The notes under the pieces: model-generated
What the model was told of the DNA's origin: nothing
Database searches by the model: none
What the model saw: only the letters and a program-made list of their open reading frames with translations
Origin: Euglena gracilis
Taxonomy: Eukaryota
NCBI GenBank assembly: GCA_039621445.1
Contig: CP154954.1
Location: 48,339,847 to 48,403,846, forward strand
Length of the DNA: 64,000 nucleotides
Reading direction: 5' to 3'
Shown here: positions 1 through 46,614 of the stretch, piece after piece
Numbering within the stretch: the first letter of the stretch is position 1
How the letters are laid out: every line of letters begins with the position of its first letter
Program-made: the position numbers and the translations under genes

Positions 1-2
1 AC

Positions 3-3000
3 CTCGGGCTCCTGCTTCTCCAGGAGTCCCCACACGAACCGGAGGAGACTGATGGCCAGCTTGATGCCGCACATCACGAGGTCCAGCAGGAGCGTGAAGA
101 GGATGAAGTAGGCCACCATCCGCCAGATGCCGTCTGTGCGAGGCGGAGAGAATAGTGCAGAGAATCTCACACACAGAGAAAATGGCATAGCAGAGGTGAT
201 CGCATCCGTCCATCCGAAGAATGGACTGATGTCGAGAAAATTGGCTCTGTGCACAGATTGGAAAAATATATGCATTTTGCAAATATTTTAAACATATCTA
301 AAACCATTGCATAAATATACAAAAACATATGCATATTATTTATCGTTGACCTTATTCAATTTATTGAATTTACTAACATTGCACATGTATTTATATTTTT
401 ATAAATAGTTCAAAAATAAATGCCTGCAGGGACTGGCAAACTGATTTTATGGCCAATATCTTGAGTTTGACGCTGATAACCAAATAATGACTGCCCTCAA
501 GCCATAAAATAAACCCTGAGTTCATCATTTATCATTTAATTGTTTATTCCACGTTGCTTTCAAAAACTTATACCCACCACTGCAACCACTGCAAAAGACC
601 GCATTATTGGCACACATTATTGGCAAACAGGCTCCTTTGACCCCCGTTTGTCTGGCCTCAGAAGCATAACGTGGACAAGACCAAGCCCACACGAGGCGTC
701 GCACGAAAGTGCAGGCAGGAGGGCGGCACACACTGGGGCTGCCCATGTCCACGTCTGGCAGCCACGCCGGCAGCCACGACGTCCCGTCCTTGATCTTGAC
801 GCAGTAGTGGCTGTTCGCCGCGACACAGCACTCCCGCTGCTTCGGGTGGCACGTCCACGTGGCCTTGAAATCTGGAGGGGGGCAGCGCGACTGAGCGCCT
901 TCCAGACGTTGCTGGCCGGGGAATCCACATATGGCAAGCAAAAAACGGTTTGAAAATGAGAGACGACACAAAGGTACCATCCAAGCATGAAATAGAAGAT
1001 GCACATACCCCACATCAGCAGAAGCTTTGAGGGGTCTGTTTGAGTTTTCGGTCCCATTGTATTAATGGGGAAGACATGAAGATGCACAAAAAAGCTATCG
1101 TTCGTCTCCCTCGTGCTGGACTTTTGAAACTTCAACGACATCGAGTGTTGTCCCCTCCCATCCGGGAAAAAACTGCACGTTCCAGTTTTCAAAACCCCCC
1201 AAAAGACCCTCCATCATTTTTTTCTGCCGGTGCAGGCAGGGGGGGGGGCGTGCGCCACACTTTCGTTGGCGTGGTCCGGGCACGTCAGCAGCTGCAGCCC
1301 GCCGCCCACCGGGCCCGGGGGGAGGCCGAGGCACTTCTGGAACAGCTTGAACCAGGCTGTTTTTTTACCAACCCCGGGGGGGGGGGGGCGGTTTCCGGAG
1401 TGCCTATGAGTGCCTGCCCAGACAGGCACCCCCCCCCCCCGGGGTGGGGTCGGCACCCGAGTAAAATACGGCCTGGCTTGAACGCGCCGAGGGTCGGAGA
1501 GTAATAGAACTGCTGGGCGGCGGTCTTGCTGCAGGACTTCGGGGCGACGTTGACGCGGTTCGGCAGGGCCTCCAGGCAGGCGGTGGAGGTGCCCTTCAGG
1601 TACTGCAGCAGGTACGGCCCTGGGTTTGGAGGGGGGGGGGGCGTGGGGCGGTGGGGCCGGATTGTGTGCAGGGCCCACGGCCATTGTCCATTACTGATGG
1701 TCGGTGTGAGCGAGAGGACACAATGCGAGGTGGGCGGGTGGGCGGGGCGAAGCCATAGCGGTTGCTGAGTCGGGGGCGGTGTTCACCTTTTGTCCAGGCT
1801 GCCGCTGTACCGTGCCGTGACCCCACGGCACCGTGGGGGGGGGGGCAGGCACACCCTGGTCGGAGCGCGGGGTGGGGCTCGGCTGCGCCGCTGCCAGATC
1901 ACACAGCAGCAGGGATGGATGGGAAGCCTTGAGGGGGGGGGGGGGGGCGGACCCCCCCCCTCCTACCTCGAAACTGAGGGGGGGGGGGCGAAAATTTTTC
2001 GATTTCATGGACGGGCAAAGGGCCGGAAATCGGGTCAAAATCGGCCAAAAATCCCTGATTTTTCTTTGAAAATCGATCCAAAATTGCTCATTTTTGAAAT
2101 TTTTTGAACATTTATTTGGGAGAAAACACCAACACATCAAAAAATGGGCAATATGTCCAAAAGTCAGCAAAAGGAGTGTTTTTGCTCAAGAAAATTTTCT
2201 GCTATTTTTGGCACCTGTCAAGCAGGGGGTGGGGGGTCCAGACGCCCCCTCCCAACATCTGGGGGGGGGGGGGTGGTCCGGACCAGGTTTTGAATAGTGC
2301 TGAGCTCTTGATAAGCGCTCACCCACCCCTTCATTGACACCCCCATATAAACCGGCGCACTCCATGGAGCTCTGTTGACTGAAATGCAAAGGTTTTGTGC
2401 CCGAAACAGGGCGCCAGGGGGTGAAGAAACACTCATTTTTGGCTCAAAATACACCTTTTCCGGGTCTGGATAGCCCAAAAAACAGCGCTTTGGGCGAAAA
2501 AAATTTTTTCGATTGTTTCGACTTTTTTTTACCCAAAAATGACCGGAAGTGAGTCGGCGCTGGCCGGTCGAAAAACGTTCATTTTTCGGCCCAAAAACAG
2601 TTTTTCTGGGTCCGGGAGGCCCAAAAACATCGTTTCGGGCAAAAAAAATTTTCGATTTTTTTTCGACTTTTGACCCGAAAATGTCCCACAGTCAATGGGT
2701 TGGCAGCCCAAAACGGGGCACTGGAGGGTCAAAAAACGCTCATTTTCAGCCCAGAAACAGTTTTTCTGGGTGCGGGAGGCCAAAAGAGATCGTTTTGGGC
2801 CAAAAAAAAGTTCGATTTTTTCGACTTTTTTGACCCGAAATGACCCACAGTCAATAGGTTGGCGGCCCAAAACGGGGCGCTGGCGGGTGGGTCGACAAAC
2901 GCCCATTTTCGGCTCAATAATTTTTCTGGGTTCGGGAGGCCCAAAAACATCGTTTCGGGAAAAAATGGTCATGATGGGCATCATGGGTCATGAGGGCCAT

Positions 3001-4486
3001 CGTGGGGTATGATGGCCATCATGGGTCATGATGGGCATCATGGGTCATGATGGCCATCATGGGTCATGATGGGCCTCATGGGTCATGATGGCCATCGTGG
3101 GTCATGATGGGCATCATGGGTCATGATGGGCGTCATGGGTCATGCTGGCCATCATGGGTCATGCTGGCCATCATGGGTCATGATGGCCATCGTGGGTCAT
3201 GATGGCCATCATGGGTCATGATGGCCATCATGGGTCATGCTGGCCATCATTGGTCATGCTGGCCATCATGGGTCATGATGGGAATCAAAACCCATGATTG
3301 GCATCATGGGTCATGATGCGCATCATGGGTCATGATGCGCATCATGGCCATCACAGGTCATGATAGCCATAATGGTTGAAAAACGCCCATTTTCGGCTCG
3401 AAAACCCTTTTTCCGGGTCTGGAGAAGCATGGTTTTGGGGGGAAAAATTTTTCGATATTTTTCGCCTTTTTTGGCCGAAAACGGTTAAGCCCACCAGTGG
3501 AAAAAGTGTACAGAATGGCCAAAATCGGCCAAAAAAACGGCCATATCTCGGGCTACGCGAACAGTTGCGGGGAAATCAAAATACCAGTAGATGGAGTGTT
3601 CCAAGGGCTTCAAATTAGGTCTCCGGACATTTCCTTTGATTTTGCTTCATTTGCAGAAAATTTGAAAATATTGATTTTTGGCCGATTTTTGGCCGAATTT
3701 TGGCCGAAAACGGCTAAGTCGGACAGTGGGAAAAGTGTACAAAATTGCCCGTTGGTCGAAAACGGGCATATCTCGGGCCAGGCGGGGAGTTGCGGGGAAA
3801 TCAAAATACTCGCAGATGGGGCATTCCAAGGGCTTCAATTTAGGTCTCGGACATTTCCTTTGATTTTGCATCATTTTCGATAAATTTTGAAAACATCGAT
3901 TTTTTGACCCCCACCCCCCGAAAATGTCGGACAGTGGGAAAAGCGAACAAAACGGCCATCTGGGCAGAAAAAGGCCGTATCTCGGGCGCGGAAATCAAAA
4001 TACCAATCGATGGGGTGTTCCAAGGGCTTCAAATTAGGTCTCTGCACATTTCCTTTAATTTTGCTTCACTTTGGAGATATTATGAAAATCGACATTTTTC
4101 GGCAGAGTCCAAAGGGCTTACCCAGGGGGGGGGCCGATCCTACCCAGTTTAGACCCCTTCGCGCATGAATAACTCGGGCCTGGCGGGGAGTTGGGGGTCA
4201 ACCCCGGGTGATTCGGAAACTAGAAATCAAATCGCTCGCGATTAAAAAAAAATTCCGGGAACAGGGCCGGGATCATGGTGATAATCCGTCCGTTCTCCAG
4301 GTCCCGACCCGGGGGGGGAGGGTCGAGGGGGGGGTTTCGCCAGGGGTAAGCTTCGCTCTTACCCAGAAAGGGATAAGAGCTCAGCGACCCCCCCCCCTAC
4401 CACCTACCTCAATAGCGAAGGGCTTCCCATCCATCCCTGCACAGCAGGGCGAGGAGGAGGGCGAGGGCCGGGGATGCGGCAAGCAT
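3..4486 (-). CDS. Membrane protein: signal peptide, ricin-B (beta-trefoil)-like Cys-containing domain, transmembrane helix; 3' end runs off the window
   Basis: Exons 4486-4443, 1904-1855, 1619-1479, 1347-1261, 871-734, 133-3 join in frame: MLAASPALALLLALLCDLAAAQPSPTPRSDQGPYLLQYLKGTSTACLEALPNRVNVAPKSCSKTAAQQFYYSPTLGAFKLFQKCLGLPPGPVGGGLQLLTCPDHANENFKATWTCHPKQRECCVAANSHYCVKIKDGTSWLPAWLPDVDMGSPNGIWRMVAYFILFTLLLDLVMCGIKLAISLLRFVWGLLEKQEPE. Three complete GT-AG introns plus two nonconventional ones. The ricin-like call rests on the CL...C...QQF...KCL...L..C pattern (inference). Confidence 0.8.
1353..1475. mobile_element. 123-bp hAT-like MITE forming a nonconventional intron (intron 1348-1478, minus)
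   Basis: TIRs CAGGCTGTTTTTTTAC / GTAAAATACGGCCTG; perfect 8-bp TSD GCTTGAAC (1345-1352, 1476-1483); removing element plus one TSD gives GAFK-LFQKC in frame. Confidence 0.9.
2380..2965. repeat. Degenerate ~150-160-bp tandem repeats inside the 2.5-kb element
   Basis: Recurring CCAAAAACATCGTTTCGGG-like and CGACTTTTTGACCCGAAA-like motifs near 2620, 2780 and 2941. Confidence 0.7.
2966..3375. repeat. 19-bp minisatellite (ATGGGTCATGATGGCCATC)n, about 20 copies
   Basis: Directly visible tandem array containing the palindromes TCATGA and ATGGCCAT. Confidence 0.9.
3480..4100. repeat. Three ~210-230-bp tandem repeats inside the 2.5-kb element
   Basis: CAGTGG(G)AAAAG at 3495, 3724 and 3932; TTCCAAGGGCTTCAA(A/T)TTAGGTCTC occurs three times. 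Confidence 0.8.
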
Positions 4487-4510: not shown

Positions 4511-5575
4511 GGTTGTTGGGCAGCCCGAACGCAGGGATGGCCTCGGGCACGGATGGGGTCAGACCACTGTTGACCAACTGCGCCGTTCGACTTTCAGAGG
4601 GCCAGCCAGGCAGCCCCGGGAAGCATGGGACACAACGAGGGGCAGCACCGGTGCAGGCGTGGCGGACCGATTTCCACGCGAGGGCATCCCCCAATCCATT
4701 GTCGGCAACGTTGAAAGGTGATGCAAAGAGGAATGCACCGAATCTACAACGGAGACCTGTTTTCGGTGGAATTTCAACAAAGATTTTTTCTTGGATTTCG
4801 TTTTGTGTGTTTCTCAAGCCGTAATCATTTTCCCGCATACCTGGGATGATGGGGTTCCATCAGGTGGCGAGCGCCATGGGGTAAACACACAAATCCGAAG
4901 CAAAAAAGGAAAAAGCCACTATAAGCAAGGTAGTGCACATGGCGAAATCAAAAACCACACCACAAAAAAAAATTGGTTCGGCGGATAATTTGCACGTCCC
5001 ACACTGCTTTTCACCCACAGAATGCAAAAAAAGCACCTCTCAGAAATCTATCAGGGTGGGCTCAAATTAGCCTCGATTTTAATTACGCCTTTAATTTCAA
5101 ACATCATTACTCATCCTGAAGCCAGCGGAACAGACACTAATAAATGTGCCAGAAATGAAAACAAGCAGAAATTCAGTGTCATGCCAAGGTAATAAATGCA
5201 AGGAAAATGTGTCAAAATGGTTTTTGTCCTTTCCGAACAAAATCTGCAAATAGCGAGCACTAAGCGCAGGAATTACGAAGATGTTTTCCTGTTGTTTCTT
5301 TGACTGCCTTAAAAAAGGATGGGGAATTCCAGATGATCCTTCAATGCAGCGGTTTCATTTCAAAGCCCAAGTAATGAACCACACTCTCCTTTTCTTTACT
5401 TGGATTAATTTAATGGATTCGGTTCAATCAAGGAGAAAATGTGACAAAATATCCACGGCATGTCCCAGTTGTCAGTGCCAGTTGCCAGTTGTCAGTTGTC
5501 AGTGCCCAGTCCCCTGATGTCCCCCTGTTCAAGTTCCCATCCACCCTGGGTATCCCTAGGTATCTCCCCACTGCA

Positions 5576-8500
5576 TCAATCCCAGGGGCAGTGCTCAGAG
5601 GAATGGTCAAGTGAGGACAGGTGGATGAGGGCTGAAAAGGTAATCAGACGGAGGTTGGCGAGGGAGGCAGAGCGGTAAATGCACAGAAGTGAGAGTGAGT
5701 CAGGGGTCAATGTGGGCTGGTCGGCGACATTGAGGACGAGTGGGGGGGAAAGCTTCCAGGGGCTGCAGTCACCGCCAGTGGTAGCGTTGAAGCGCAGAGC
5801 GACGAAGAAGGCAGAGGCCGCCGCACTGGTATTAAGCTTACGGCCCGCCTTTGCACGCGCCAACTCCATATGCCAAGTGTGCATGTGGGGACCCTGGAGC
5901 CCCCCCCCATGGTTAAACACAAAGTGCGGGCCAACTTTTGGGGGTGGGGGCAATTCACTTGGTACGACTTTGGTGTTGATGGGGAAAATAAGGCAAATGA
6001 AACTCGAAAATGTGGTGACAAGGTTGCAAAGTTAAACATAGAGAGCTGGGCGAATTGGTACATGTGGAGGGCAACTGCCGGGGCAAGCACCACGGCGGGG
6101 GGGGGGGGGCATATTGGTTAATCCATACATCGATACTTATATCCACCCACCCATTTATCCATTGGCACACCCATCCATTCCACCCAGCAATCAATTCCAT
6201 ATACGCTCGTGCACAAACTTGCATTGAACATAAAAAAAATATAAAAAATATGTGTACACAGATCGACAAAAAATATACATTTTTGGTCAACTTTTAGGGC
6301 TGCCTTAGTTTGATACTAAGACTAGACTACTTAGTTTGATACTAAGCCTAGACTACTTAGTTTGATACTAAGCCTAGTGATATATCTGTGGGGGGGGTCT
6401 CGCTGGACGCCAGCATCTTTTTTTTTTCGTGGCTGGAAAAGGTGCTGGCAACCTGGACCCCCCCCTGGAGGGGAGGGGTGGGGTCTGGCTCAAAGAATTC
6501 CCTGAAGAGCAATTGTTGTCCACCGGTTTTGACGCCTCCGGAAGGATTTCACGAGCCAGCACTCCATCCCACAGGCAGCCTCTGGGCTGGGGGGCAGGCA
6601 GCATCACTGGAGGGCACTGGAAGCCAAAGGAGGGACGACAGGGCAGTGGGGGGCAGGCTTCTTTGTCATACCCGGGCTGCCGGCCCAGGGCCCAGACCCA
6701 GACCCGGACCCGGACCCGGACCCGGACGCCCCCCCCCCGGGGGGTCTTCCAAGTTAAAGAGAAGCCTGGCGGGGGGAGCTGAAGGGTTTGCGACCAGTGA
6801 GACGCTGGGGGCGGGGACGCCCTCCCGGGGCAGCCAACCTTGCGTTTTCGTCGAGGGTGGCCGTCCGGTGGCCCACGGAGGCCCATTAGGTTGGAAACCC
6901 TGAATCAGAAGTCGACCTTTCTGGGCGAAAAATGGGTTGGAAGTGGGGGGAAAGTGACTTGTGGCATCCACTGATCACTTTTGTGGGTGCGACAAATTGT
7001 GTGGAAATGCGGTTCTGCATTTTTAGTGGACCATCAGCAATCCACAAATCACATCACAAGGTGCATTTTTCCTACCTTTAATTTTCAACCCCATTCAAGA
7101 CCAAACCGCCCATCCTCAAGATCCTCAAGCTGCTGTCCTCGGGGAAAAAAAGACCTCCCTTTCACTTAAACAAACTCCCTATCCCCTAGCCATACCATGC
7201 ATTTTACGGTGGGGAAAGGATCTCGATGCTTCACGCCCAGGGACACTCCCCAGCCAGGCAGGCTGTCACACCCCACACCGAAGCAAAAAAAAAAAACAAC
7301 AAAAAGGAGGCGATCCGAAGAAGCAGCAAATTCATGTGGGTCCAGTTAAAAGTCATTCACCCTTGGGGATGCTCCCGCACCGCGTGGATCAGTGTGTTCT
7401 GTCTGCACCACGTGTGGCGCCGGGTGCACCGCACCACATGACAAGAATCAGGTACAAACTGAAAATGACTCCTCGAGAGAGAAACACCTGCGAAAACACC
7501 CAGCGATTCCAAAATTGGAACAACAGAACAATTTGGGTGACATTGGTCCTTTTTAGCTGGTTTCAGCCCACATTTCAGCTGGTTTTGCCACCACATCTCA
7601 ATGATTCTGTTCAAACGGCTATTGCATCTCTGCAAGTGGGCACAAAATGGTCAAAAGTGGCCAAAAATGGGCACAAAAAAATGCCAAAAAAAAGGCCAGA
7701 AATTGATGAAAAAAATTGCATACAAATGGCCAAACGTGGTCTAAATTGCCAGATGCAGCCCAAAATGGCTGAGAGTGGCCAAAAGTGGTCCAAAATGGCC
7801 AAACAATGGAGTCCAACAAAAAAAGGAATGGAAACTGACTAAAAGTGAGGTGCTGATGAAATAATATGTGAAATTGCACAATTGGAAATGATTTTTCTCA
7901 CACAATGCATGCGGTGTGCCACGGGTGCACGCGGTGCCGAGATGTGTGAGAGCGTCCCCCTTACCCCCTGCGAGCTGTCCATTTGAAGAAAGCTAATCAG
8001 CTCTTTGCAGTGCCCGACCCCATTGTCTTGGAAGGGCATGCCCTGTGGTACTATTTTCACTCAGCCCAGCAGGGCAGTGGGGCGCGGGCAGGGGCGGCGG
8101 CAGAGGGTCGCCGGGGTCGTGCGGGGGGCCCGCGGCGGAACATCGAAAGGGCCGGGCCACGGCTGGCGGTTGGGGCCCACAGCACCGAAAGCCCCGGCGG
8201 AGCGCTGCCGGTGGCTCGGTTCGGGGCCACGACCCCCCCCCCAGGTGTCATTGGTCAAACGGAAACCAGTCCAAAAAGCCGAGAACTTATGCCCGGGGAA
8301 TGGGGGGAGGGAGGGGCAAAGATCATGCTGTGTGCCTGCACCTGAGGCATGTGTATGTGTTGATGTGCGCAGGCACAATCGTGTAAATTGGGAAACCCCA
8401 GCAACAAAACAAGATGGCAGCACAGACGATCATGGAACCAAATGCCAGAATACCGCATTCATCGAGACGCCACCCCAAGCCGAGGGAGGCGTGCGCATCT

Positions 8501-10629
8501 TGGGGAAGGCCGGGAAGAGCCGGGGGCGCCCCTGCCGAATATACAACTGTTAGTTCCAGTCAAATGGGGGCAACCGTGGGAGCCGCACAGGTGGGAGACA
8601 GGGGCCCGCTCCACCGTGGGGGGGAGGAGGAGTGCGGCGAGTCGAGGCAGAGGAGGGGGTCAGCGCTGGCAGTGGAGCGGTGGCTTGGGCCCAGGGCCGC
8701 TGCCGGGGCTCCAAGCCGGGGGGCGAGGGCAGGGCTGTGTGGGAACGCCTGGTGGGGGGAGGCAGCCCCTCAGCAGGATTTGATTGAGGGAAGAGGGGAA
8801 GAATGGCCGGGGGGGGGGGGGGATGTGCCAGTCCGGCTCGAAAAATATGCGCAAAAAAAATGATAAAATGATAAAATGCAAAATGATAAAATGCACATAA
8901 ATGTGGTGAAAAGAAGGAAATGACGAAAAACATGTGCCAGAAAGGAACAAATGCGCTGGAAAAGTATTGGAAAAAAATGTGCAAAAAAATGTGATAAAAT
9001 GCACAAAAAATGCACATTTTTGGAAAAACTGCGCAAAAAAAAGGCGCAAAAGGACATCCCCCTGCACTGCCTCGAAATTCTGGCAAGACTGCTCCTGCTG
9101 GCGGTGGTGGTAGAGGATCCCCCCTCTCTACCCCTTCCCTTCTTTACATCGAACCCTGTTCACAGGGGGGGGGGACCCGCCAGGGTAATTAGACAGTTAA
9201 ACATAGGAAAAAATCCTTCGGCACCGAAGGGACCTTCAACCTGAAGAACGGCGGCTCGGGCACACCGGGAAGGGGGCCGACGCCCCCTGGGGCTGGCCAT
9301 CCCGGTTGGCCCTGGGCAGGGGAAGGGGGGCCATCCGGGCGGAAGGGAAGGCAAGGGAAGGCGGAGCGAGGGGAGGCCTGGGGCAAGCACCCATGGCCCT
9401 CCAGAATCCCAGACACAGTCACGCCCGGTCACGCCCAGTCACGGCCAGTCGCGCTCAGTCATTCCATGGGTGCTTGGCTCGGGAGGCCGAGGAAGGCGAC
9501 AGCGAGAGAATGAGACGGCAGCGCGGGCTCTGCCGGCCGCAGGCGTGCTTTGAAGCCCCCCCACCCCCCTGCGTTCAGCGGCCTTGAAACCCAGTGGCCA
9601 GACTTCCCAAAACCCACTGGGACAGGGACCAGAAGGCCGTCACAGCCTATTTTCCCAAACCCAAACGGTTGGGGGGCATACTCTGGGGATACATCATTCT
9701 GGTGCTAACCTCACTCTCAACCTGCCTCAAATCATATTTTGAAACCATTTCGAGCGTTCATAGGAAGGCTCTGCAAAATTTTCCAGAATTTTTTTGCACT
9801 TTGCAATTGAAAGTTTATGGGCTGATCCCACTGGACAAAGCGATACCCAACGTTTCATTTCAGTCGACCAAAAAGGTGGTCCGGCAACCTGAATAATGGT
9901 CCTCTGCTCTGAGCCCTGAGCCAGGTGCCAAAAAGTGCCGGCTGGCAGGACAACAGACAGACGGGGGGGGGGGGTAGAATCCCATGTGGCTCACAAGATC
10001 GGAAATACCTTTGGGCGGCCAGGGTTGGGGGGGAAAGACGCCTGGCCAGCGGTCAGCGCCTCCACGGCCCAAAGTCACCAAAGAGGGGGGAGGAGGTGTG
10101 AGGGCGCAGACCGGGGCGCAGGGATGGGGGGCTTGGGATGTGGCCTCAAACACGGCCGGCCGCAATAGATCTGGCGAGGCAGATGACCCCGGCAGCCGGA
10201 CCTCCAAGCCCAAAAGTCAGACCCCCCCCCGGAAGTCTGACTCAACAGATTTTTTTTATAAAAAGAGCGTTCTTTCTTTTACGGGGGGGGGGTAAATTGT
10301 GTAAACCACGGGTTGACATTGCGGGTTCGCAATGAAGAGTGTAGTGCAAGCGAGAGAGAAAAATAACGCGAGGGAAGATGATGTCTCATTCTGCTCATTA
10401 TTTCTGCTCTGCCCATTGCGCCCCACTAGCAAAATGACACTGCACCCCCATGGTGAAAGAACAGAAGGGCGGAGTGCAACGTGTCACGCAGAGAGCTGCT
10501 AGTATTCATTTTTCATCAGCTGGCAATAGTGCAAAGGCAAAGGCCAGTTTAGCATATTCCGCCAAAATCACGCACGTGGAGTGGTGCATTGTGCAATTCC
10601 AGGTCGGGACAATTCCCACACACATACCG

Positions 10630-10673
<44 letters not shown>

Positions 10674-13400
10674 TTACGCACAGGCACGCACGCACACACA
10701 CACACTTACACACACCTTGACCGACAGACAAAAACACACAACACAAAACCCTTTCACTGTAAAAAGTGGTTACCTGCAGCCTGCAACGAAACAGGCACGA
10801 TTTCTTCCACAACCAACAAAACCAACAGCGGAAAATCCAGAGTTGTTGCTCTGAGTGACAAAGGTCCATTAGGAAATGTGAGACAAACATATTTGATACA
10901 AGAACCGGCAAGGACAGCAGGCCTCCAGCAACCATCCCTGGCAGAAAGCAAGAGGGAAATCGCAGCTGGGCAGCCGGCGCAGCTGAGGCCCCTTTCGGCT
11001 GTCTGCCGAGGGGGCTATTGACTTTGTGCACGGGTGAGGATGGCCGTGTTTGAGGTGTGGGCGTGGGTGGATATGTCTATGGATTGGGAGTTTGTGTGCT
11101 TTGTGTGTCTGTGTGTGCCTCAGAGGCTTTTCCAGGACCTGGGGGGGGAGGGGGAGTCAAGACCTGCCCACCCACCCCTGGGGGGCTTGGGGGGGGGGGC
11201 TCGGGAAACCAACTTTTGGGGTCAATTTTGAGGTCCCAAGAAATTGTTTCGTGCCAAAAATAGAAGGGAATCCCACCTTGGGCGGCGTGCTTGGCCCGAC
11301 CCCCTGGGGGGGGTGGACCCACCCACCCAGCCTCCCCTTCCCCCCTGGGTAAGCACACTTAAAAAAAAAGTCTCTGGTGCACATGTGCAATCCATGCGAA
11401 AGGTGTGTGTGGTAAGAGTGCCACTATCATAAGGCGTCAGGCGGGCGGGAGCAGTGGGATCCTCGGCGAAAGCGCAGGGGCTCACGCGGACGATGAGGCA
11501 CCTGGATTTGGACCAGAGACAGCTCAGTGGGTGCAACACTCCCTGTGGTTTGCAGCACTCCCTGTGGTAGCACGGATAATGCTGGATCTAGATGCCTCAT
11601 GCTGAGCGCCAATGTACGGCCATCGGCTGTCGGGCCAGAGTAGGCTGACATCAACAGCTTGGGGGTGTGCTGTGATTGTTGTTTGTTTTTGAAATTGACA
11701 GTTCATTTATGAGTTGGTGAGCAGGGCGGTCCGAAAGGAAAAAAAAAATCTCTCCGCTGCCCAGCACACAGGAAAATGCGCAAAGAAATTTGGCATTCTT
11801 CGGTGACAACAGGTCGACATCAGGGAAAAAAAACTGAATCTTGGCATCCTTGGACCATCGCCCATCCACCCAAATCATCAAAAAATGTGCTTTTTGGACT
11901 TTTTAGTTTGGGACGTTCAGGTCCAGTTTGCCCGAAAGGGGGGCTGTCCGTAAGAAAATAAAAAAAATACTTTCCTGTCCCTTAAGGACCGCCCTGTTGG
12001 TGAACAGAATTTGTGGCTGGGGGTTGGAGGCTTTTGTGCTGATGGCCACTGCGAAATATGGAAACGCCATGGGTGGGTCCATGCTGTGGCCAATCACCTG
12101 CAAACCCCACGCGATATCTTGAGAATATCCGACTGGAATAGCACCTGAACAGATATAAATAGCACATAAACCGACATAGGAAACCTGCACCTCCTCACAA
12201 TTACACCCCCATCCTTCAGCTGGGGGTGAAAACAACGTGGGCCTTCGTTGTCAAAACACGCAAATCAAACTCAAAACCACTCAAAAACTCAAAAAAAGGT
12301 TGAATTGTAAATTCCTCCAGGGGCTCCCAAGGGTGAACACCTCTTTGTGGGAGAGGAATAAATCGTACATCCTCTGGGGAGAATTATTCATAATGGCATC
12401 CTTGTGGAACTTTTCCGGGAACCCACTGAGCCTCGGTTCAAGAAAACACCAACTTATGAAGACTGTTTTATCATCAAACCGGATCCCATAAAATTTGGGG
12501 TTAAAAAACCAAAAACACTTTAAAAATGCCACTTTTTGGCCAACCTTGACCAGTCAAAAATGCACAAAATGCACAAAAAAAATGTGCATTTTTCCAAAAA
12601 AAATGCGCAAAAAATGTGCAGAATCTGACAGGAAGAGCGCAAGTGTCATGAAAATGGAAAACAGCAACAAATTTACAAGAATTATATGGTACTATGACGA
12701 AAATCCAAGCTTAAGAAGTCAAAAATTTTCAAAAATGCAAAAATGCAAAATTATGAAATTTTGTCCAAAATGCACAAAAAAAAGATAAATGACAAAAAAA
12801 ACACCAAAATGGAAAAAATGTGCTGAAAAAATTCAAGGCAAAAAAAAATGCGATAGATTGCACATGATTGGAAATTGCACACAAACGAGAAAACGTTAAA
12901 TGTCACATCCGAAAATGCACAAAACGCCCAACCCTTGGCTCTCAATTTCTGAAAAACTTCGGCACTCGCGCCGAAAAGTTTTTTGGTCCAGCGTGGCCAG
13001 CTTCGCTAGGCTGGCCCCAACTGTGTTTGGGATCAGCAACCTGGCTGGGAGCTGCTCGCTGATAAAAACGTGCTGGCTGACTGGACCCCTCCTCTGTGGG
13101 TTGGGTCTCCGCCGGCTTAAGGAATCCCGGCAAAACAGTTCAATAACCTGTGAAAAGATGTGGGGGAAAAAACCCACTGAGAAAGAATTCATTTATCCCA
13201 ATGTTCTCCGTCATCAAACACGACACAAACAAACAGGCAAGGTTCATTTGCAGGGAATCTCAACAAGCCAGAAAAACACATATCTGACCACCAAAATGTC
13301 ATTGCTGGTGTGACGGCCGGCAAACGGACACCCACGGCATATCGGCGCTGGGGATTCGGTTCGCTGGGTCAGTGGCCATATATGCAGCGAGCACTGCAGT
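5576..13400 (-). CDS. Poorly resolved multi-exon gene of unknown function
   Basis: Exon-like blocks with splice signals: 5893-5576 (terminal, GPHMHTWHMELAR...CPWD*), 6899 to about 6495 (interrupted by a MITE), an exon ending 7361 (phase-compatible, HPQG-VSNLMG), 8042-7965 (GMPFQDNGVGHCKELISFLQMDSSQG). Further GC-rich blocks run to about 13400. Full model not resolved. Confidence 0.35.
6304..6377. repeat. Three tandem 26-bp units, each containing the hairpin CTTAGT-TTGAT-ACTAAG
   Basis: Units start at 6304, 6330 and 6356. Confidence 0.85.
6654..6768. mobile_element. 115-bp hAT-like MITE, probable nonconventional intron
   Basis: TIRs CAGGCTTCT / AGAAGCCTG; TSD GTGGGGGG / GCGGGGGG (7 of 8); interrupts an exon-like block. 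Confidence 0.7.
10633..10710. repeat. (CA)n microsatellite
   Basis: Directly visible. Confidence 0.9.
11722..11996. mobile_element. 275-bp hAT-like MITE
   Basis: TIRs CAGGGCGGTCC / GGACCGCCCTG; TSD TTGGTGAG / TTGGTGAA. Internal motif GGCATCCTTGGACCATCGCCCATCCACCCAAA recurs near 26379, with a weaker match near 30290. Confidence 0.8.
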
Positions 13401-17200: not shown

Positions 17201-20200
17201 AATTCAATCTTCAAATTTTGAAATGATGGGAAACCGATGGAAGTGGGCCAGTGGCCTGACATCGCCCAGTGGCCTGACATTAAGTTTGTGAACACCGGCA
17301 GCTCGGGTGAACCATGTCATCGCCATTGCCCAGGTTCAGACCCCCCCAGGGGGGACAGACAAAACGAACAAAACAGCATTTTTATTGCATACACATTCAC
17401 TTGGACCAGCACACAAACCTTCATGCTCAGTGTATGCCAGCACCTCACGCCGCTTACGGATGTCCCATTTGCGACAGATTTTGTCCTGACAGCCTGCAAA
17501 AGGGAGGCGGGCGACGTCGTCTGAAATGCACACCAACACGTACGTACGTTCGCAACGATATGCCCTCAGGATGGCCAGGCTGCCACGGTCCAGAAACAAC
17601 AGGGAGAGGGAGAGCCGGCGGGCTTGTTGTACAGCGGTGGGGGGCCAGAGCGGAGGCGGAGACCTGAGACAACGTACTTCCCGTCGCGGGAGAAACAGCA
17701 GCACAGCACCACCTTCTCGTGGTCGAAGACGGAGACCTGCTGGCCGATGACGGCGTCCCACAGGATCATGGTGTTGTCCCGGGAGGTGGTGGCCAGGAAC
17801 TTGGAGTCCAGCGAGAAGCAGGCGCTGATGACCGTGTCCTGGAGGGCACAGAAAGAAGCGCAGTGGTACAAAGAAGGGGCTGGGCCGCTCGCTCTGCGGT
17901 CTTTCTGCTCGCTATTGCACGGTCAGCTTGGTCGGCAGTGCTGGCCCTGGGCCAGTCGGACCTTGTCAACTATGGCAACGCAGCTGGCTTCCAGGGGGGG
18001 GGGGGGAGCCAATCCCAATGTTTTCCAAATCGACGCTTCGCAATTCCCTCATGGAGTCAATGGCAAAACCTTGGCGGACAGATGCAACACGCATTGCATG
18101 TCCTAAATTGCAAGGAAGGGGCTACACCTCGTGGCCAAAGAAGGACAGGACCTCCCGGCCGGTGTAGATGTCGTACATCACGATGGCTGTGTCCTCGTGG
18201 GCGCACGACACATAATGGTTTTCGCTCGGGGTCAGCGTGGTACACTTCACCCGGCTGGGGGCGGCACCACACCTCGGGGTGAGACGATCACACCTCCCTC
18301 TGGAGCATTCCGATCCAAACAGCATCATCATCGGATTCTTCACTCCTGAAGGAAACACAAAATCCTCACAACAAACAGAAATGGTGGGGACAAACAACCT
18401 CGAAGCAAAGACTGAAGAACTTGACAGAGAAACCCCAAAGACAGGATGCCATCCACTTTGCATGCCAATCTCGGCACCATGCTCTCGTGGTGGGCAACAT
18501 TGGGTGCGTTGTGTGTTTAAGTGGTGTGTGTGTGTCTGTGTGTGTGGCATGTGGATGATAATGTTGTGAGCGCCCGCGTGCTCCTCGACATGCAAATACA
18601 TAACCACACACACCGCCACCACAGAGGTGGCCATCCCCCCTTCGGCCCCTTTCGCCCCATTGCGGGGGGTGGTGCCGGGCGGCGTGGCCCAGCAGCGTAT
18701 ACTGGTCGTAGTGGCGGATGCGGCGCTCCTCGAGGCGGCGGATGTGCAGGAGCTCGTCCAGCCGCGACACGGACCGCCCCGGCGCCGCCGCCGCCTGCAC
18801 GATGGCGTCGTCCAACACCGACTCCATGGCGATGCAGAAGTCCCCGAACTGGAACACCGGCAGGGCCCGGCCTCGCCCCTCGGCGCATGTGCCACTGCGG
18901 TTTGGGGCAGGGATGGTGGTACCACGCCACGCCACGCCACGCCACGCCACGCCACGCCAGACCACATCACACCACACCACGGCACGACACACGGTACCAC
19001 ACCACACCGCGCCGCGCCACACCGCTCCACGCCACGCCACGCCACGCCACGCCACGCCACGCCACGCCACGCCACGCCACGCCACGCCAGACCACATCAC
19101 ACCACGCCACGGCACGGCACACGGTACCACACCACGCCACGCCACGCAACACCGCGCCACGCCACGCCACGCCACGCCACGCCACATCACACCACAACAC
19201 ACCACACACCTTGGGGGATGGAGAGGTGGCGATATAAACAGTTACGTGCCACACACGAGCCAACTAGTGCACGCGATGCAACGCAATATTACTTTGTCCA
19301 GGGTGATTGGTGTTGTCACGTTGCAAAGTGATCAACAGATGCACCCTGACTTTAAAAAACCAGAATTGAATAGATGTGAAAAGCACAAAGCCTCCGGATA
19401 TGACACAGGCAGGGCCCTGCCCATGCCCCCCTCTTCCTTCGCCTCCACCTTTTTGGTTGGCTTGCGAGTCTTCTGGAACGCCGGCTTGGCCAGCTTCTTG
19501 GGCTTCTCTTTCGGCACCGACACCACGAAGTCCGCCGCGCCACCGCGCCGGCCACGGACCCCCCAAACGAGTTCCGTCTTCCGGGTTTTGCCGAGAGGAG
19601 CGGTTGGACCCCCTCCCAGCAATGGATAGCATGAACAAAAATCCATCCACCTCACCCCAAAAAACCAATCATCAATATACACACACACATATATACACAT
19701 ATATGCATATTGATATATATATTTATATATACACATTTACACACTTATGGACACTGCGCGAGACTTTTTAGACCGAGAAAATTGAAAAAAAAGGACCCTG
19801 CATTTGGCGAATGAAGGGAAAATCAACCCCTGGGCGTACGCACTGGATCCCAATTGACAAACAAAGGAATCGGAACCCCTCCCAGGGGGATGGCTAAGCT
19901 GTGCGCCAGTTTTCAAGCATCGGATCTCTCAAAGTTGGGGGGGGGGGCATTAGAACGGCTGAGGTTGTTCCACAAAACCCCTCGCCGTGACCCAAAACAG
20001 CCCCCTTTGCCACGCAGATGCACAGCCCGCCCCCGAGGCACAGCAGCGGCCCCCATACTGGAAGAGCTCGCCCAGCACCACCTGAAGCTCCCCCGACGTC
20101 TCCCCCTCCTCCGACTGGCCCGCCTCGCTCTCCCTCTCCTCCGCGGTGAAATTTAGGGCCGGCCACATCCAGCGGTCGGGCGATATCACTGCCCATGGGT

Positions 20201-22276: not shown

Positions 22277-22389
22277 CAGGGTTGTATGGGAAGCTCCGCA
22301 GACATGAGGTGGGTGGTGGGGGGTCCCCCCCCCCTAGGGGGGTAAGGTGGTAGGGGGGGGTCCCCCCCTCGGAGATTCATACAACCCTG
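22277..22389. mobile_element. 113-bp TIR element, possible nonconventional intron in an unresolved gene (about 21900-28500)
   Basis: Perfect 12-bp TIRs CAGGGTTGTATG / CATACAACCCTG; no TSD left; flanks look exon-like but strand and frame are undetermined. Confidence 0.6.
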
Positions 22390-27866: not shown

Positions 27867-29230
27867 GAAGAAACAAGAAGAAATAATAATATCAAAAAGG
27901 GCTAAAAATGTTGCCCAGAGCGCGTTCGGAAGCCCCATTATTAGGAAAGAAAATGACACGAACAATGACATCTGTGCAAGGTGACAGACATTTTTTTTGC
28001 TGCCAGCCCCAGCATGCGTGGGGGAGGTGGAGGAAGAGACCTGAAACTGGGTGTCCACCCGGACCCTTTGCCGACCACTGGCTTGACTGGGTGACACACA
28101 GAACTGGGAGAGGAAAGCAATGGAGAATGACAAGAAGGGGGGAAAATCCAACAGAAGAAACAGACCTGTACGTTGGAAAGGCTTGCAATATGTCGAACAC
28201 CCTGCTGGTGGTTGATGCCAGGCATCAAAACGTTTTTTATTATTATTCCAAATCATACACCAATTCCCTTCTTGCAAAAGCTATCTGCCCTCAAAGCTAT
28301 CTGCTATCTGGCTACCGTGCGGGAGGGCACGGAGCCCCACAGGGTTGTGGCTGGGGGTCGGGGAGGGGGGGGGGCAGGCAGCACACCGGCGACTCCCGCC
28401 GGGCGGAAGCCGGGGTGCTGGGGTCGGAGTGGATGGCGCTTTGCTGGTGGGCGAGCTGCGCCGGGCAGGGGCAGGGCAAGGAGAGGGGTCTCTGGGACAA
28501 GCCAGTGAACCGGGGGCGTCGGGAGAGTGGCAACAAGGCGATTTCCCCGCCCGGCAAAAGGAGAGCAAGGCGGATGTCTGCAAAGCCAAGCAACCCCAGA
28601 GGCAAAATAGTGCGAGAGCTGTCTCTTAAAAAGATCGCGCACCACTGCAAAAACATGTGGATAGGAGTGACAAAATTGAGGCGAGCGAATCTGACACACT
28701 GACGAAGCAAACCACTGCTCCCAACTCCGAAAAGATTCTTGTTTTCGTAACGTGAAATCATTAATGTTGGAGGCATGCAATCAAACAATCATATCCAAAA
28801 AACCACATCTCACACAAGTGCATCTGCACAGCAGTGGGATAAAATCACACAACAAGTGCATCAATCAATCTACAACGCACCTGCACCTACGGATACAGTG
28901 TTTTGTATGTACCTGTTTGTGAACAAACACAAACAGGTAGGAACCGTCACGAATAGGCATACAACACCCACAAGACACCACACACTTGATGAGATGCATG
29001 GGCGAAATATTGAGAGCCATTGCTGGCGGAGTCGCATCGCACATGCTGCCGGCCATCGAAATGGACGTTGGAGTACAGCCCGAAACACTGGAGCAGCAGC
29101 CAGGTCACGAGGGGACAAACAGCACCAAATGGAGTCTCCAAAATCCAAGCAACAGAGTTATGTTTCCTCTGGGGAATGAGGCAAGTGCCATTGTTCTGAA
29201 ACCAGGTGTTGTCGGTATTAGGTGCCACAT

Positions 29231-35700: not shown

Positions 35701-38700
35701 TCACAGACATCTTTTGTGGGGGGGGGGACAAATTGGGCAGCACAGAGGGGGGTGACAATTTCCCGGGGTGACAAATTGGCCGGCACAGCCAATGGTGACA
35801 ATTGCCCATAAACTTTTTTTTTAAACTTCAAGGAATCTGTGCGGAAATTTGTGCATAAATCGATTCTGAGACACGAGGTTTGATTTGAAAGGGTTCAAAA
35901 TTTGTCTCTGACTTCGTTTACCAGGGGGGCAGTTGTCAGCCCTGTGCTGCCCCACTTTGTTGCCTCCCAAAATTACCCCTTTCCTTCTGCTGACCCGTTT
36001 GTTGGGCAACGGTTGCACTGCGCTTGGGGGAGGGCAGGTACGTTGCCTGTGGGGAACAGCTGGAAACCCCTTCCCCGCCTGCCGTCTCAGCTCAGGGACC
36101 CTCAGGGAGGTGGGGTTCGAGTTTGAGCAACGTATGCACACAAAACGGCAGGGCGGAAGAACGCTGGCGGGCGCGGCGCACGTGGGCGAAGCTGGACTGC
36201 GCCAGGCAGCGCACGAACGTCTGGATGCGCTGCTTCCCGAGGAACGCCAGCAGGCGGCGGTACACCTTGCGCTTCATCCCATACGTGCGCACCGCTGCGG
36301 GAGGAGGGCAATTTTTTTTAAAAAAAGAAAAAAAGAAACGAAATTGGAGGTGGGATTTGCAGGGCTGCCTGCAACCACAGTTTTCCAGAAAACGCGCAGG
36401 CGCAGCTGTGGACCCTTGCAGTTTGGGGGCTGCGTACTGTATCCCACCACTGCCAGTGTTGACCGTCAAAAGCGACCAGCACGAGGGCACACCAGTCTTG
36501 GCTTGGACGGTGGAGAGGGCGCTGGTGCAGTTCTTCATTGCGCGGCTTCCCAGCGTGTTGCCGGGTCCAGGCGGTGCACGTCTGCAGCCACGTGCATTCT
36601 TTTTTCCCTTGGCAGCTCATGACGGTTTTTTTTTGACCCAGCCCAGCGGTCAAATGCCCAAATGGGGGGCAACCCGTCTGTTCGGGAGGGGGGGTTGTTA
36701 ACGGTGAAAGGAGGCCTTGCCACCCGGGAATTGTCAAACTGATTCCGGTCGAATTGCCAGCGTCCCCAGCCCACCGTCGGGTGCGACTCCGGCCGCCGGC
36801 CACTCCGCCATTCCGGGGAAGCCGGCCACGGCACATCGCCTGGCCGGGGCCGAGCACCCGGACGAAGGTGCCGTTCACGTGGGACTCCGTGCCCGGCCCC
36901 GCCTTGCGACCCAGCCCCGAAAGGCAACACAGCCTCTGCCCCCCCACCCCCCCCCGGCGAGGGGACGGCTCGGCTGGAAGGCAAGGCCGGCGCGCACTGC
37001 CCCTCCATGATGACGTAGAACCACGTGGTGGCGACCGGGGCCGCCCCTGCCGGGGGGGGGGGGGGCTTGTGCTTCGGGGGGCCGGCCCATAACAGGTGCC
37101 CCCCCAAGGGGGTCGGTTTGGATGTGGGGTGGGATGCTTCGGCGTGCCCAGGCTTCTTTTCATGACCTCCAGGGACGCCCGAAGAGGAATCCCCAGGAAA
37201 GGCTCAACGGAGAGAACGCCATTAAAACAACCCTTCAAGCCCCCGTTCTTCATGATGGTCAAACTTGTCTTGCAAATTGCGGGTGTGTGCCGAGGTTTTT
37301 TTGCCTTGTGTGCCTCACAGGTCAAAACCTCAGCACTACATCACCAGCAGTCAACAATTGGCAAAGAAAAATGAACGGGTCCGGCAACGTTTTTTCTTTG
37401 AGTGGCCTCAAAGTCCCTCAACGCTGATTCCTCTGCGTAATTTACGTGACCGACAATGTTGTTGACATTTTTTTGTCGGAAATATCCAAAATATTGGAAA
37501 TATTGGTAGTTTGACTCATGTCGGGGGTCGGATTTTTGACCAGCAATTCATCACCTATATCATCCCCCCCCCCCCCCCCCGTCAACCCACCCCCTTCGGC
37601 CGACCAGCCAAACTGATCCTGCTTTGCCACCAGGGGTCGCAAGATTCACAAGTGGATGGGGGGGAGTATGAACCCAGAGGCCCTATTTCCTGGGAGCCTC
37701 AGGAGTTGGCCTAAACCTCCAAAAACAGTAAAACAAAATCATAAACATTTCTGGCGAAAATTCATCTGAAACGAATGAAAGGGCGTTTTTAAATTAAAAA
37801 AAAAAAAGAAAAGGCGCTGGTAAATTATTGCCCTGGCGAAATTTGGTGCAAATTTTGCCAAGGAAATGCGTTTTCTCAACCACTTTGGAAGGGTCAAATT
37901 TGCAGGAACTGATACCCCCCCCCCCCCGGAGACTGGGGTCAAGCATGCCTGAAAATTCAGCCTTGGTTCCAACCCAGCCAAATTTCCCTTTAAACAAAAT
38001 TTTTTCTGCCACCCGGCAGGGGAGGGTCGAAAAGGTCTTGCTGCCTGACCCTACCCCTTCCCTGCCTCGCGGTGGTGCGACACCTCTCAGAAAGGTAAGC
38101 TGGAACCCCCACCAGGCTTTTGCTTAAGGACCCCCGGGGGGGGGGGGGGTACTGGCTAGCCAATCGGCTAGACACTGGAAAAAGTGGACTAGCTAGACCC
38201 CCCCCCCTCCCCCCCCCGGGGGGGGGGTCTGGGGGGGTCCCCGGACTGGGAAAAAAATTTTCCTCCGGCGCTGCGCGCCGGAGGAAAAATGAGGTTTTTA
38301 ATAGGTTTTTGGCTGATTTTGTTCCAAAAATTTCCAAAATGGCCAAAAAAACCGGGCATTTTTGGCCCATTTTTTGGGGTCCCAAAAAAAATTTTCGGCG
38401 CTTCGCGCCGGTCACTGGAAAAATTTTTTCCACTAGCTAGCCCTGCTAGCAGACCCCCCCCCCGGGGGGGGGGGCTGCTAGAAAACCCACTAGCCAAATT
38501 TGGACTAGCTGCAGTCCAGCCCCCCCCCCCCGGGGGGGGTACTGCAATCCCTTAAGCAAATGCCTGACCCCCACGTATGGGAACCAGACTTCTTTTCACC
38601 AACCCCGGGGGGAGGGAGGTGCCTTGTGCCAGGGGTGCCTGCCCACAGTGGGCACCCCCCGGGGGTCGGTATTGGGTCCCGGTGCCCGCCGACGAAGCGA

Positions 38701-44199: not shown

Positions 44200-46614
44200 C
44201 CCCCATCGCCAGGAGGGGCCCCAGCGGGGTTGATCTGGCGGATGATGCTCCACAGGGTGTGGGTGCCGAGGGCGATGTCGAACGTCTCGTCGCTGGTGGG
44301 CAGCGACCCGCCGTCCCAGCACAGGTCCAGCTGCTGCAGCGTCGGCCCAGGCCGGCCCCAGGCTGGCCAGGGGGCGATGAGGGGGGAATCCTCCTTAAAG
44401 CGCCGGGCCAACCCTTTTTACCCCAAAAATGACCCAAAACCGCCATGGGCACTGTCTGGGCAACGTTTTGTCAGACTGCCCAAAATATCGGCACAAAGTG
44501 ACGGAAAACTGAATCTTTGAGGCAGTCCCCCCCCCCCCGGCCGGAAACCACCCAGCGGGGGGAAGGAGGCCTTGCGAAAGGGGCTTCAGACGGTCGAAAC
44601 CACCCCACCCTCCTTCGTGCCCAACCCTCTGGGGGGATGCAAGGTCCTTGTGGCCGAGTTGTGCAGAAAGTGGTCTTTTCCAAAGTGCATCCAACAGGAA
44701 CGTTGTTCTGCGTTTGTGGGGCAATGAGTCCAGCACTGTGCGCGGTACATTTAAGAACAAAATGCCTGCCCAGCCTCTTCCCCACGACCACGTCGTCTGC
44801 TGTTCTTTAACACCTCGCCAAACCGTTCGTTTGGCGGTTCCTTTCCTCGGAAAGAAGCCCGTTTCCCACTCAAAACCGAGGCAAAAGATTCGCCGCAGCC
44901 CCGGCCCCGGGGGCCGGCCCGGCGGGAGAGAGCCCACGATGTTGAGGAGCTCGGAGGTGGTGCTGAGGATGGGCCCGATGACGAGGTGCTTGATGTGCGT
45001 GGCCTCCAGCGCCACCGCCTGGCACACCGCGGAGTCTGCGTCCTTCAGCCCCCGCCAGGCGGTGGCGAGGCGGCACCGCAGCCACACACAAAAGGCGGCC
45101 CAAACCTGACCCAAGTTGCTCAGTGGGTCTTCCCAAGAATTACTGGGGGGGTGGGGGTCCCTGCTGGTCTGAGTACGCAGCCACAACAACAAGCAGTCAC
45201 GTGGAACATGATGACTTACGTGGACATGAACACAACACATCGCACACACGGACACCACACCACACCACACCACACCACACCACACCACACCACACCACAC
45301 CACACCACACCACACCACACCACACCACACCACACCACACCACACCACACCACACCACACCACACCACACCACACCACACCACACCACACCACACCACAC
45401 CACACCACATACAACACAAACAAACACAACACAAACATGCACGCACGCGCACACAACATGCACACACTCAACACACACTCATCACACAACTAGAGGCACC
45501 GTCACACTGCTGCTCATCAGATATCCTCATCAGATAGGGGTGAAACGCGGTCTGGGGCTGATGGACACAGCCTGACCCAAGCACTGCCAGTTTGTGTAGA
45601 TTTGCCGGCAGAGGGACACCTTGCTTGAATATTTTGTGCAGTTAGCCAAATAAAATGGTTCACCAGCCTACTGGATAGAAGCCTCAATCAGCACACCATA
45701 AACCGAAGCCAACGTCATGGCAAAACATCACACACAAATGAAATATTTTGAGAAGAAAAAAAAAGAAAAAAAGAAGCTGCAGAAAAGCGCAACGGCTCCC
45801 AGGGCGCACAGAAAATGCAGTGGCTCTCAGGGCGGAAACTTGTGCTGGAGGTCCTTGAGCACGGCACTGGTCAGGGTGTGGATCGGCCCGTGGCTGGCGT
45901 GCTTCCACACGTGGAGGTGCAGCCACTCCAGCGAGGGGTAGGGGTCGGTGGGGGGCACCACGGAGAAGAGGGTGTCGTCCACCTCAGGACGCAGGCCGGA
46001 CCTGCAGGTCGCCGGCCAGCATGCAGCCACGCACATGCATGCGCACATGCCCGCGTGACAGAGAAACCCACATGTGTGCACGCACGCACACACCCACCCA
46101 CCCACACAAACCGCAAACACACACAAATAACAACACACACCAAACGCAACAGAGATTCGAGTGCACAAAGAAAATGAGCGCGTTCACACGACGTGGTTGC
46201 AGACATGTTGGGTCACGGCCTGGAAAGTGCCTCGGCCAAGGAAGTACAGCTCCAGGCGGCGCAGGCCAAAACAAGTGCCAAGCAGGGTGTGGACGAACTT
46301 GTTGGTCACCTCCCCGAAGAGGACACACGCCTGCAGCCGCGAGAAGCGAGCGATGTTGGAAGCCAGGATGGTTGCTCCCAGCGGGCGACCCAAAGAGGTG
46401 TTGCGAACCAACTCTCACAAACACCTTTCACCACGGGCAAACACAACCAAACACACCCAACACATCACACACAGAGAGAGAAGGACAAAGATGCACACAC
46501 AGGCACACGCACACATGGACACGTGCACACAGATGAGCAATACGCATAAGCACCACATCCATCTCATAAACAACGCACGTGCACAGAACACAGGCACACA
46601 CACAGACACACACA

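Follow-up and report, generated by a model that had tools for sequence, protein, structure and literature searches.

Introduction

The closest described counterparts of the sequence analyzed here are the nonconventional introns of euglenids. The subject is a 2,530-bp non-autonomous transposon with terminal inverted repeats (TIRs), which interrupts the putative signal-peptide codons of a gene of Euglena gracilis and is probably removed from the RNA as such an intron. The transposon lies in a stretch of 64,000 nucleotides (GenBank assembly GCA_039621445.1, contig CP154954.1, positions 48,339,847 to 48,403,846 of the forward strand), which is referred to as the window, and all coordinates below are positions in this window. 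According to a 2024 review (PMC11282704), the TIRs of nonconventional introns carry CAG at +4 to +6 together with CTG at -8 to -6, junction repeats resembling a target-site duplication (TSD) are frequent, and the introns are released as full-length circles after the conventional introns. An origin from MITEs, which are transposable elements of the miniature inverted-repeat type, was proposed in 2013/14 (PMC3935182) and restated in 2018, 2024 and 2025. In 2013, transposable elements had yet to be identified in the genome of any euglenid (PMC3935182), and the origin of the euglenid nonconventional introns is still called unclear in PMC12501133.

The code by which these introns are recognized has been defined in E. 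gracilis with knock-ins and synthetic introns as 5'-N3CDG...CH'GN5-6|R, with pairing required beside the two triplets (PMC12501133). The same source reports that the donor spacer of 3 nt is intolerant of a change of +/-1, that synthetic 50-bp introns following the code were spliced, and that selection on pairing, or the need for it, is known only for some 12 paired bases adjoining the motif. The nonconventional introns of E. gracilis have a reported consensus of CCAGG in positions +3 to +7 and of CCTG in positions -9 to -6, and the catalogued examples range from 30 to 5,931 bp, including one of 4,682 bp (PMC11170887).

The locus shares with these introns the CAG at +4 to +6 and the CTG at -8 to -6, the 3- and 5-nt spacers and the downstream purine, in addition to paired ends, the lack of a GT-AG pair, junction repeats over which the boundary can slide, GT-AG introns in the same gene and a length within the reported range. 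It differs from them in that the ends of the element are far longer and perfect (19 bp) and the full 8-bp TSD is intact. Additionally, the 2.5-kb cargo of repeat arrays makes the transposon identity visible rather than conjectural, whereas excision at this locus is predicted.

Transposons with comparable ends have been described in other settings. Elements of the hAT superfamily have an 8-bp TSD and TIRs of 10-25 bp (PMC3942097), and the element resembles non-autonomous hAT elements in its 8-bp TSD, the sequence of which differs at each of the five elements of the window, in its 19-bp TIR, in its non-coding nature and in its size of 2.5 kb; it is called hAT-like by its ends only. Merlin elements, which are the only autonomous DNA transposons with an 8-bp TSD found reported in Euglena in the literature searched, occur in E. 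gracilis, and the TSD of the superfamily is 8-9 bp (PMC8101967). The element has the 8-bp TSD, the near-perfect TIRs and the genus in common with them; however, all of the Merlin TIRs described in that source begin with GG, whereas the element and the eight other candidates of the window begin with CAGG. The introners and transposon-derived spliceosomal introns of Micromonas, dinoflagellates and Fritillaria (PMC11282704) are likewise TIR/TSD transposons that land in exons and are removed precisely at the RNA level, which is predicted here, with the TSD helping to define the boundary. In contrast to these introns, which use the spliceosome and GT/AG-type sites created by the element or the TSD, the element has frame-restoring boundaries that are not GT-AG (the 3' end is CT) and that follow the stem-based code of euglenids. 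No literature naming hAT or an 8-bp duplication in connection with nonconventional introns was found; subscription papers and supplements may bear on this point, and the review PMC11282704 contains neither "hAT" nor "8 bp" in its text.

Results

Anatomy of the element

The element proper comprises 1910-4439. Its inverted ends are formed by CAGGGATGGATGGGAAGCC, which is present at 1910-1928 on the plus strand and at 4421-4439 on the minus strand with 19 of 19 bases matching. A pattern search with this sequence, in which up to three mismatches were allowed, gave three matches in the window against 0.03 expected, and none of 100 shuffles reached three. The target duplication CACAGCAG, read directly at 1902-1909 and 4440-4447, is identical at 8 of 8 positions. 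The perfect 19-bp TIRs and the perfect TSD had been noted in the first-pass annotation of the window, and both are confirmed; the span of 1902-4447 given there corresponds to the element together with both TSD copies.

The interior had been described in the same annotation as consisting of tandem arrays only and as lacking a recognisable open reading frame (ORF). All three arrays (Table 1) are present, but in a self-comparison the internal repeats cover 1,606 of the 2,530 bases (63%), and unique sequence makes up about 470 bp at the left side and 330 bp at the right. The self-comparison also reveals a diverged extra copy of the 160-bp unit upstream of its array, from about 2399, and a partial third copy of the 225-bp unit, which extends to about 4089; the units of the arrays diverge by 13-18% among themselves. 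The 19-bp unit holds a perfect 16-nt palindrome, and the 380-bp array that it builds is self-complementary, with inverted arms of up to 192 nt (74%), which could form a large hairpin or cruciform. Stop-free frames in the element reach 167 amino acids. No Pfam family reached the cut-off in any of the four element frames of at least 128 amino acids, and none did so in the 25 frames of 58-167 amino acids that overlap the element, where three sub-threshold matches (E 0.018-0.047) were obtained, in agreement with the earlier statement on the absence of a recognisable ORF. G or C homopolymer runs of 10-17 occur throughout the window, including both subterminal regions of the element, and the 208 short matches (13-38 nt) that the element gives in blastn at E<=10 are nearly all G/C homopolymer.

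The host gene and its reading frame

The gene interrupted by the element lies on the minus strand and was traced through a single match obtained in a word-based protein search with the frame 528-1061(-), namely P0001, a 211-residue protein in EukProt. The GGOE01 accession prefix assigns P0001 to the transcriptome of Euglena longa (10.1101/573709). In tblastn, P0001 is colinear with the minus strand in six pieces, and the element is flanked by two of them (residues 2-13 at 4474-4439 and residues 12-31 at 1912-1853). The five-intron gene model (Table 1) encodes 197 residues without a stop; the identity is 163 of 192 residues with P0001 and 122 of 189 with P0002, a second homologue. The gene thus points to a Euglena that is near E. 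longa but distinct from it.

The frame depends on what is removed at the element. When the element is retained, the frame stops after 25 amino acids, and when the 2,530-bp element alone is removed, so that both TSD copies are left, a stop is encountered at amino acid 41. Removal of 2,538 nt, which is the element and one TSD copy, joins 4486-4443 to 1904-1855 in frame, and the frame stays open. Because only the 2,538-nt removal preserves the frame, the gene stays open under no interpretation other than an intron. The splice register can slide over the 8-bp repeat without a change in the mRNA. The joined N-terminus is the most hydrophobic stretch of the protein besides the C-terminal anchor, and it aligns with the N-termini of both P0001 and P0002. 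The proposal that the flanks of the element join into an intact signal peptide is upheld in the form of a homologue-aligned, hydrophobic N-terminus (a putative signal peptide), as is the description of the locus as a non-autonomous TIR/TSD transposon in signal-peptide codons.

Fit to the nonconventional splicing code

In the register of the published code, the gene strand of the intron gives the sequence GTG-CAGGG...CCCTG-CTGCT|G. The CAG is located exactly 3 nt inside the 5' end of the intron, the CTG at the 3' end is followed by a 5-nt spacer (CTGCT), and the first base of the downstream exon is a purine, the G at 1904. Read on the opposite strand, the element would fail the purine rule, as the sixth TSD base is C there. 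The CAGG/CCTG terminus corresponds to the E. gracilis nonconventional consensus. The ends form 19 contiguous pairs with a duplex energy of -45.6 kcal/mol, and all 19 of these pairs are kept in the minimum-free-energy (MFE) fold of the 2,578-nt pre-mRNA segment. The predicted product is a functional-looking mRNA with an open 197-residue frame that is colinear with the E. longa orthologue. Since every feature of the code is present, the ends of the element fit the experimentally defined code for nonconventional splicing. Judging from the sequence, the element is probably spliced out cleanly as a nonconventional intron.

In this register the intron begins with GT (GTG-CAG), as the first-pass annotation had pointed out. 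A further suggestion made there, that the end stem alone can define an intron over 2.5 kb, is not supported in that form. The code also needs the CAG and CTG, the 3-nt donor spacer, the 5-6-nt acceptor spacer and the downstream purine (PMC12501133). Nor is a length of 2.5 kb surprising; the intron is long but not exceptional because nonconventional introns of 4,682 and 5,931 bp are catalogued (PMC11170887).

A second predicted nonconventional intron and other CAGG-ended elements

A similar, smaller intron is present in the same gene. The intron at 1348-1478 consists of a 123-bp MITE-like element (1353-1475, CAGGCC.../...AGCCTG) and one TSD copy. The 8-bp TSD of this element, GTTCAAGC on the gene strand, is located at 1476-1483 and 1345-1352 and is perfect, yet 2 of the first 12 bases of the ends are mismatched. 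Removal of 1348-1478 in the register of the code restores the junction ...GAFKLF..., which is conserved in both homologues.

End pairs of the type CAGG...CCTG were collected from the window with the requirement that at least 9 of 12 bases be complementary and that the ends be 40-6,000 bp apart. A perfect 8-bp TSD flanks 5 of the 511 pairs; the corresponding count in 80 shifted registers has a mean of 0.05 and a maximum of 1, and it is zero in 30 of 30 Markov-simulated windows. With one TSD mismatch allowed, nine pairs are found, as compared with 0-4 in eight shifted registers, and some of the four one-mismatch pairs, especially the 4.8-kb one, may have arisen by chance. All nine pairs begin with CAGG, and each has a different TSD sequence, as transposition predicts. 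Whether ORFs continue through the other TIR/TSD elements says little about these as introns, since open frames predominate in DNA as G+C-rich as this.

The only relative of the ends of the 2.5-kb element in the window is a 113-bp element at 22277-22389, which has inverted ends of its own (12 bp). At its left end, 16 of 19 bases agree with the TIR of the 2.5-kb element, and its subterminal motif, a G-run with GGTGGTAGG, resembles that of the larger element. No target duplication was found at 22277-22389, where 1 of 8 flank bases matches.

Transposon class

With an 8-bp TSD (8/8) and a short TIR (19 bp), the element conforms to the description of hAT elements given above, and we infer from its ends a hAT-like superfamily. 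The terminal pentamer fits what we take to be the hAT end consensus, for which a literature search gave only unrelated papers and no confirmation. Merlin was considered and ruled out: the TIR of the element begins with CAGG and the CA/TG pair lies inside the inverted repeat. The 8-bp TSD agrees with that superfamily. No DDE_Tnp_IS1595 domain was found with Pfam in the ORFs of the window that were scanned. A MITE is usually defined as an element of less than 1 kb that is non-coding, flanked by TIRs and present in high copy number (PMC3935182). The element is non-coding and has TIRs but, at 2.5 kb, is too long for this definition, while the 123-bp element at 1353-1475 fits the size of a MITE.

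The host protein

The gene probably encodes a small, C-terminally anchored, cysteine-rich product with a putative signal peptide: residues 1-21 at the N-terminus are hydrophobic, a hydrophobic anchor lies at the C-terminus, and ten cysteines are present. No Pfam family was found in P0001 or P0002. A profile search retrieved a small family of nine representatives at E<=0.001, six of which were scanned (P0001, P0004 and P0006 were omitted); a ricin-type beta-trefoil lectin domain is strong in P0010 and weak in P0007, which provides a weak lead toward a lectin-like ectodomain in the host protein. A match of P0005 to SpaA-like repeats looks spurious, and a sub-threshold Pfam match to DUF3586 (E 0.0029), which uses an incorrect reading frame in exon 4, was dropped.

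The three conventional introns of the gene begin with GTGTG, which is the conventional donor consensus reported for E. gracilis (PMC11170887). For the intron at 134-733, the chosen boundaries yield Asn where both homologues have Ser, and the alternative registers are neither GT-AG nor compliant with the code. A separate observation concerns the insertion site: when residues 12-16 of P0001 are compared with 4443-4447 and 1895-1904, the E. longa protein turns out to be longer by two residues (Leu-Cys) at precisely this site, which could be due to replication slippage in the CTG/TG-rich stretch or could be an excision footprint.

Table 1. Positions of the host gene, the element and the CAGG-ended elements in the window
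Feature	Position	Strand	Evidence
Exon 1, part a; opens with the start codon (4486-4484) and covers 14 2/3 codons of the putative signal peptide	4443..4486	-	tblastn of P0001
Predicted nonconventional intron, 2,538 nt (element + 8); phase 2 in codon 15	1905..4442	-	
Exon 1, part b; end of the putative signal peptide and start of the mature protein	1855..1904	-	tblastn
Conventional GT-AG intron, GTGTGCC...CCCAG, 235 nt	1620..1854	-	
Exon 2	1479..1619	-	tblastn
Second nonconventional intron (predicted), 131 nt	1348..1478	-	Code fit and conserved junction after removal
Exon 3	1261..1347	-	tblastn
Conventional GT-AG intron, 389 nt	872..1260	-	
Exon 4, cysteine-rich ectodomain	734..871	-	tblastn
Probable conventional GT-AG intron, 600 nt	134..733	-	
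Exon 5, transmembrane anchor; gene exits at the window start	1..133	-	tblastn
Non-autonomous TIR DNA transposon, hAT-like by its ends	1910..4439	-	TIR, TSD, no Pfam family
TIR at the 5' side of the intron, CAGGGATGGATGGGAAGCC on the gene strand; CAG at intron +4 to +6	4421..4439	-	0 mismatches
TIR at the 3' side of the intron, ...CCCTG on the gene strand; CTG at intron -8 to -6	1910..1928	-	
TSD, upstream copy, CTGCTGTG on the gene strand; first 5 nt exonic, last 3 nt (GTG) donor spacer	4440..4447	-	
TSD, downstream copy; first 5 nt (CTGCT) acceptor spacer, exon restarts with G at 1904	1902..1909	-	
160-bp tandem array, 2.5 copies, 82% matches	2566..2965	.	Tandem Repeats Finder
19-bp tandem array, 20.1 copies, 87% matches	2967..3347	.	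Tandem Repeats Finder
225-bp tandem array, 1.9 copies, 82% matches	3469..3904	.	Tandem Repeats Finder
CAGG...CCTG element, 454 bp	38113-38566		Ends 11/12 complementary, perfect 8-bp TSD
CAGG...CCTG element, 721 bp	40782-41502		Ends 11/12 complementary, perfect 8-bp TSD
CAGG...CCTG element, 283 bp	61231-61513		Ends 11/12 complementary, perfect 8-bp TSD
CAGG-ended pairs with one TSD mismatch	6654-6768, 11722-11996, 36568-36842, 4607-9380		

Other features of the window

Rfam and tRNA scans of the window gave nothing. A Pfam scan of the 192 stop-to-stop frames of at least 128 amino acids gave two matches, both sub-threshold, namely the DUF3586 match mentioned above and one to GMC_oxred_C. The latter, a GMC oxidoreductase C-terminal domain at 28751-29176 on the plus strand (E 0.0012; 19.2 bits, with the cut-off at 27), may belong to an exon of another gene. 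An interstitial telomere-like repeat of CTAACC-type units is present at 54935-54994 (2.5 copies of a 24-bp period), and near it, at 54474-54585 and 55752-55871, are arrays of 42 and 55 bp in which GGCCGCGGCC is abundant. Long microsatellites are located at 18922-19185 ((CCACG)x53), 45252-45409 (a perfect (ACACC)x32), 53951-54076 ((TG)x64) and 56874-57018 ((GTGC)x36).

Discussion

These results suggest how an insertion of 2.5 kb may be compatible with an intact message. A non-autonomous cut-and-paste DNA transposon of 2,530 bp would have inserted into codon 15-16 of the host gene. The ends of the transposon would provide the CAG, the CTG and the stem of the nonconventional splicing code, the duplicated target would provide the 3-nt and 5-nt spacers, and the sixth TSD base on the gene strand, a G, would provide the downstream purine. 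The code spacers of 3 and 5 nt together equal the 8-bp TSD, and the CAG and CTG are terminal bases of the transposon; therefore, cuts made 3 nt ahead of the CAG and 5 nt past the CTG would take out the element and exactly one TSD copy (2,538 nt). Such cutting would restore the pre-insertion mRNA, and the insertion would thus be tolerated as an intron whatever its cargo. We regard this explanation as a whole, with a transposon inserted in signal-peptide codons and excised by nonconventional splicing, as likely.

Several points weigh against it. No transcript, EST or protein of the species itself was found, and no match was identical to the window (1 match among 15 candidates, 2 among 224 and 0 among 5), and the absence of a protein from the species itself is also expected of a silenced or broken allele. 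Tests of the code have used introns ranging from about 50 bp up to natural size, and none that was repeat-rich and 2.5 kb long; large alternative hairpins can also arise in the interior of the element. A very recent and disruptive insertion would equally be expected to leave the frame intact elsewhere in the gene. With regard to the transposon itself, no transposase domain was found with Pfam in the 192 ORFs of the window described above, and the interior of the element has no second copy in the 64 kb (blastn, E<=1e-5; 0 matches outside itself).

The element could be a plain disruptive insertion that is spliced out too inefficiently or not at all, in which case the locus would be a null or hypomorphic allele or a recently dead copy, and the message would be truncated after 25 codons and degraded. 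The missing own-species protein fits this explanation, as the collection that was searched does contain the E. longa orthologue; however, this collection may lack a transcriptome of E. gracilis, and the absence weighs little. The element is long and 63% repetitive, and its self-complementary 380-bp array could compete with the end stem. Nevertheless, the end stem of -45.6 kcal/mol, which is far stronger than the -10 to -2 kcal/mol typical of the terminal 10-nt pairing in E. gracilis nonconventional introns (PMC11170887), persists in the full-length MFE fold, and nonconventional introns of 4.7-5.9 kb exist, as catalogued in PMC11170887. A very recent knock-out would leave the gene otherwise intact, as observed, but all of the sequence requirements of a code that is experimentally sufficient are present at this locus, which makes a merely disruptive insertion unlikely. 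Removal by the ordinary spliceosome, as an introner-type intron that uses the GT at the border of the TSD and the element, is a further alternative. The intron in the register of the code does begin with GTGCAG, and hybrid conventional/nonconventional introns are reported to account for 0.8% of the introns of E. agilis (PMC12501133). However, the 3' end that restores the frame is ...CTGCT rather than AG, the next two AGs downstream (...TGGCAG and ...GCGCAG, read by eye) would take out a further 14 or 22 nt and disrupt the frame, and the intron lacks the GTGTG start of the three conventional introns of the gene. Spliceosomal removal is therefore highly improbable.

The age of the insertion is a separate question. 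The first-pass annotation had called the element very young, a judgment that drew on nothing beyond the perfect ends; the stem is under splicing selection, and only 8 spacer bases are free to drift. The element may instead be an old, conserved nonconventional intron, the perfect ends of which have been held by selection on the stem and on the coding part of the TSD. Such selection is plausible in that pairing beside the CAG and CTG is needed for splicing (PMC12501133) and 8 of the 16 duplicated bases are exonic, and the intron at 1348-1478 keeps a perfect TSD despite 2 mismatches in 12 end bases. However, selection is known for about 12 pairs, whereas 19 of 19 are perfect, and the 8 unconstrained spacer bases are unchanged. 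The divergence of 13-18% among the array units, which would agree with an old intron, can predate the insertion and says nothing about its date. An old intron appears rather unlikely, and it would differ from the explanation favored here in age only, with the same mechanism.

The locus does not reveal a new mechanism, in that a transposon (MITE) origin has already been hypothesised and long nonconventional introns are known; it is an unusually clean case. The transposon is unmistakable: its TIR is long and perfect, its TSD is complete and its cargo is non-coding. It is located exactly where the code predicts an intron, with a similar smaller intron beside it. The element is also a natural test of the code across 2.5 kb of structured cargo. 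We tentatively suggest, as a possibility that we would not yet favor, that the code has its fixed spacers of 3 and 5 nt because they mirror, in RNA, the 8-bp TSD of a CAGG-ended, hAT-like family that is possibly still active. This link (3 + 5 = 8) would tie the splicing code to one transposon superfamily. If it is true, any such element that inserts into a transcribed exon and has a purine as its sixth TSD base would be born as a precise intron, whatever its cargo, which here is 2.5 kb of satellite-like arrays. The excision machinery would either have come to recognize the ends of transposons in the course of evolution or trace back to the apparatus of transposition itself. The 2.5-kb locus and its 123-bp neighbour would then represent two stages of one process of intron birth in a single gene.

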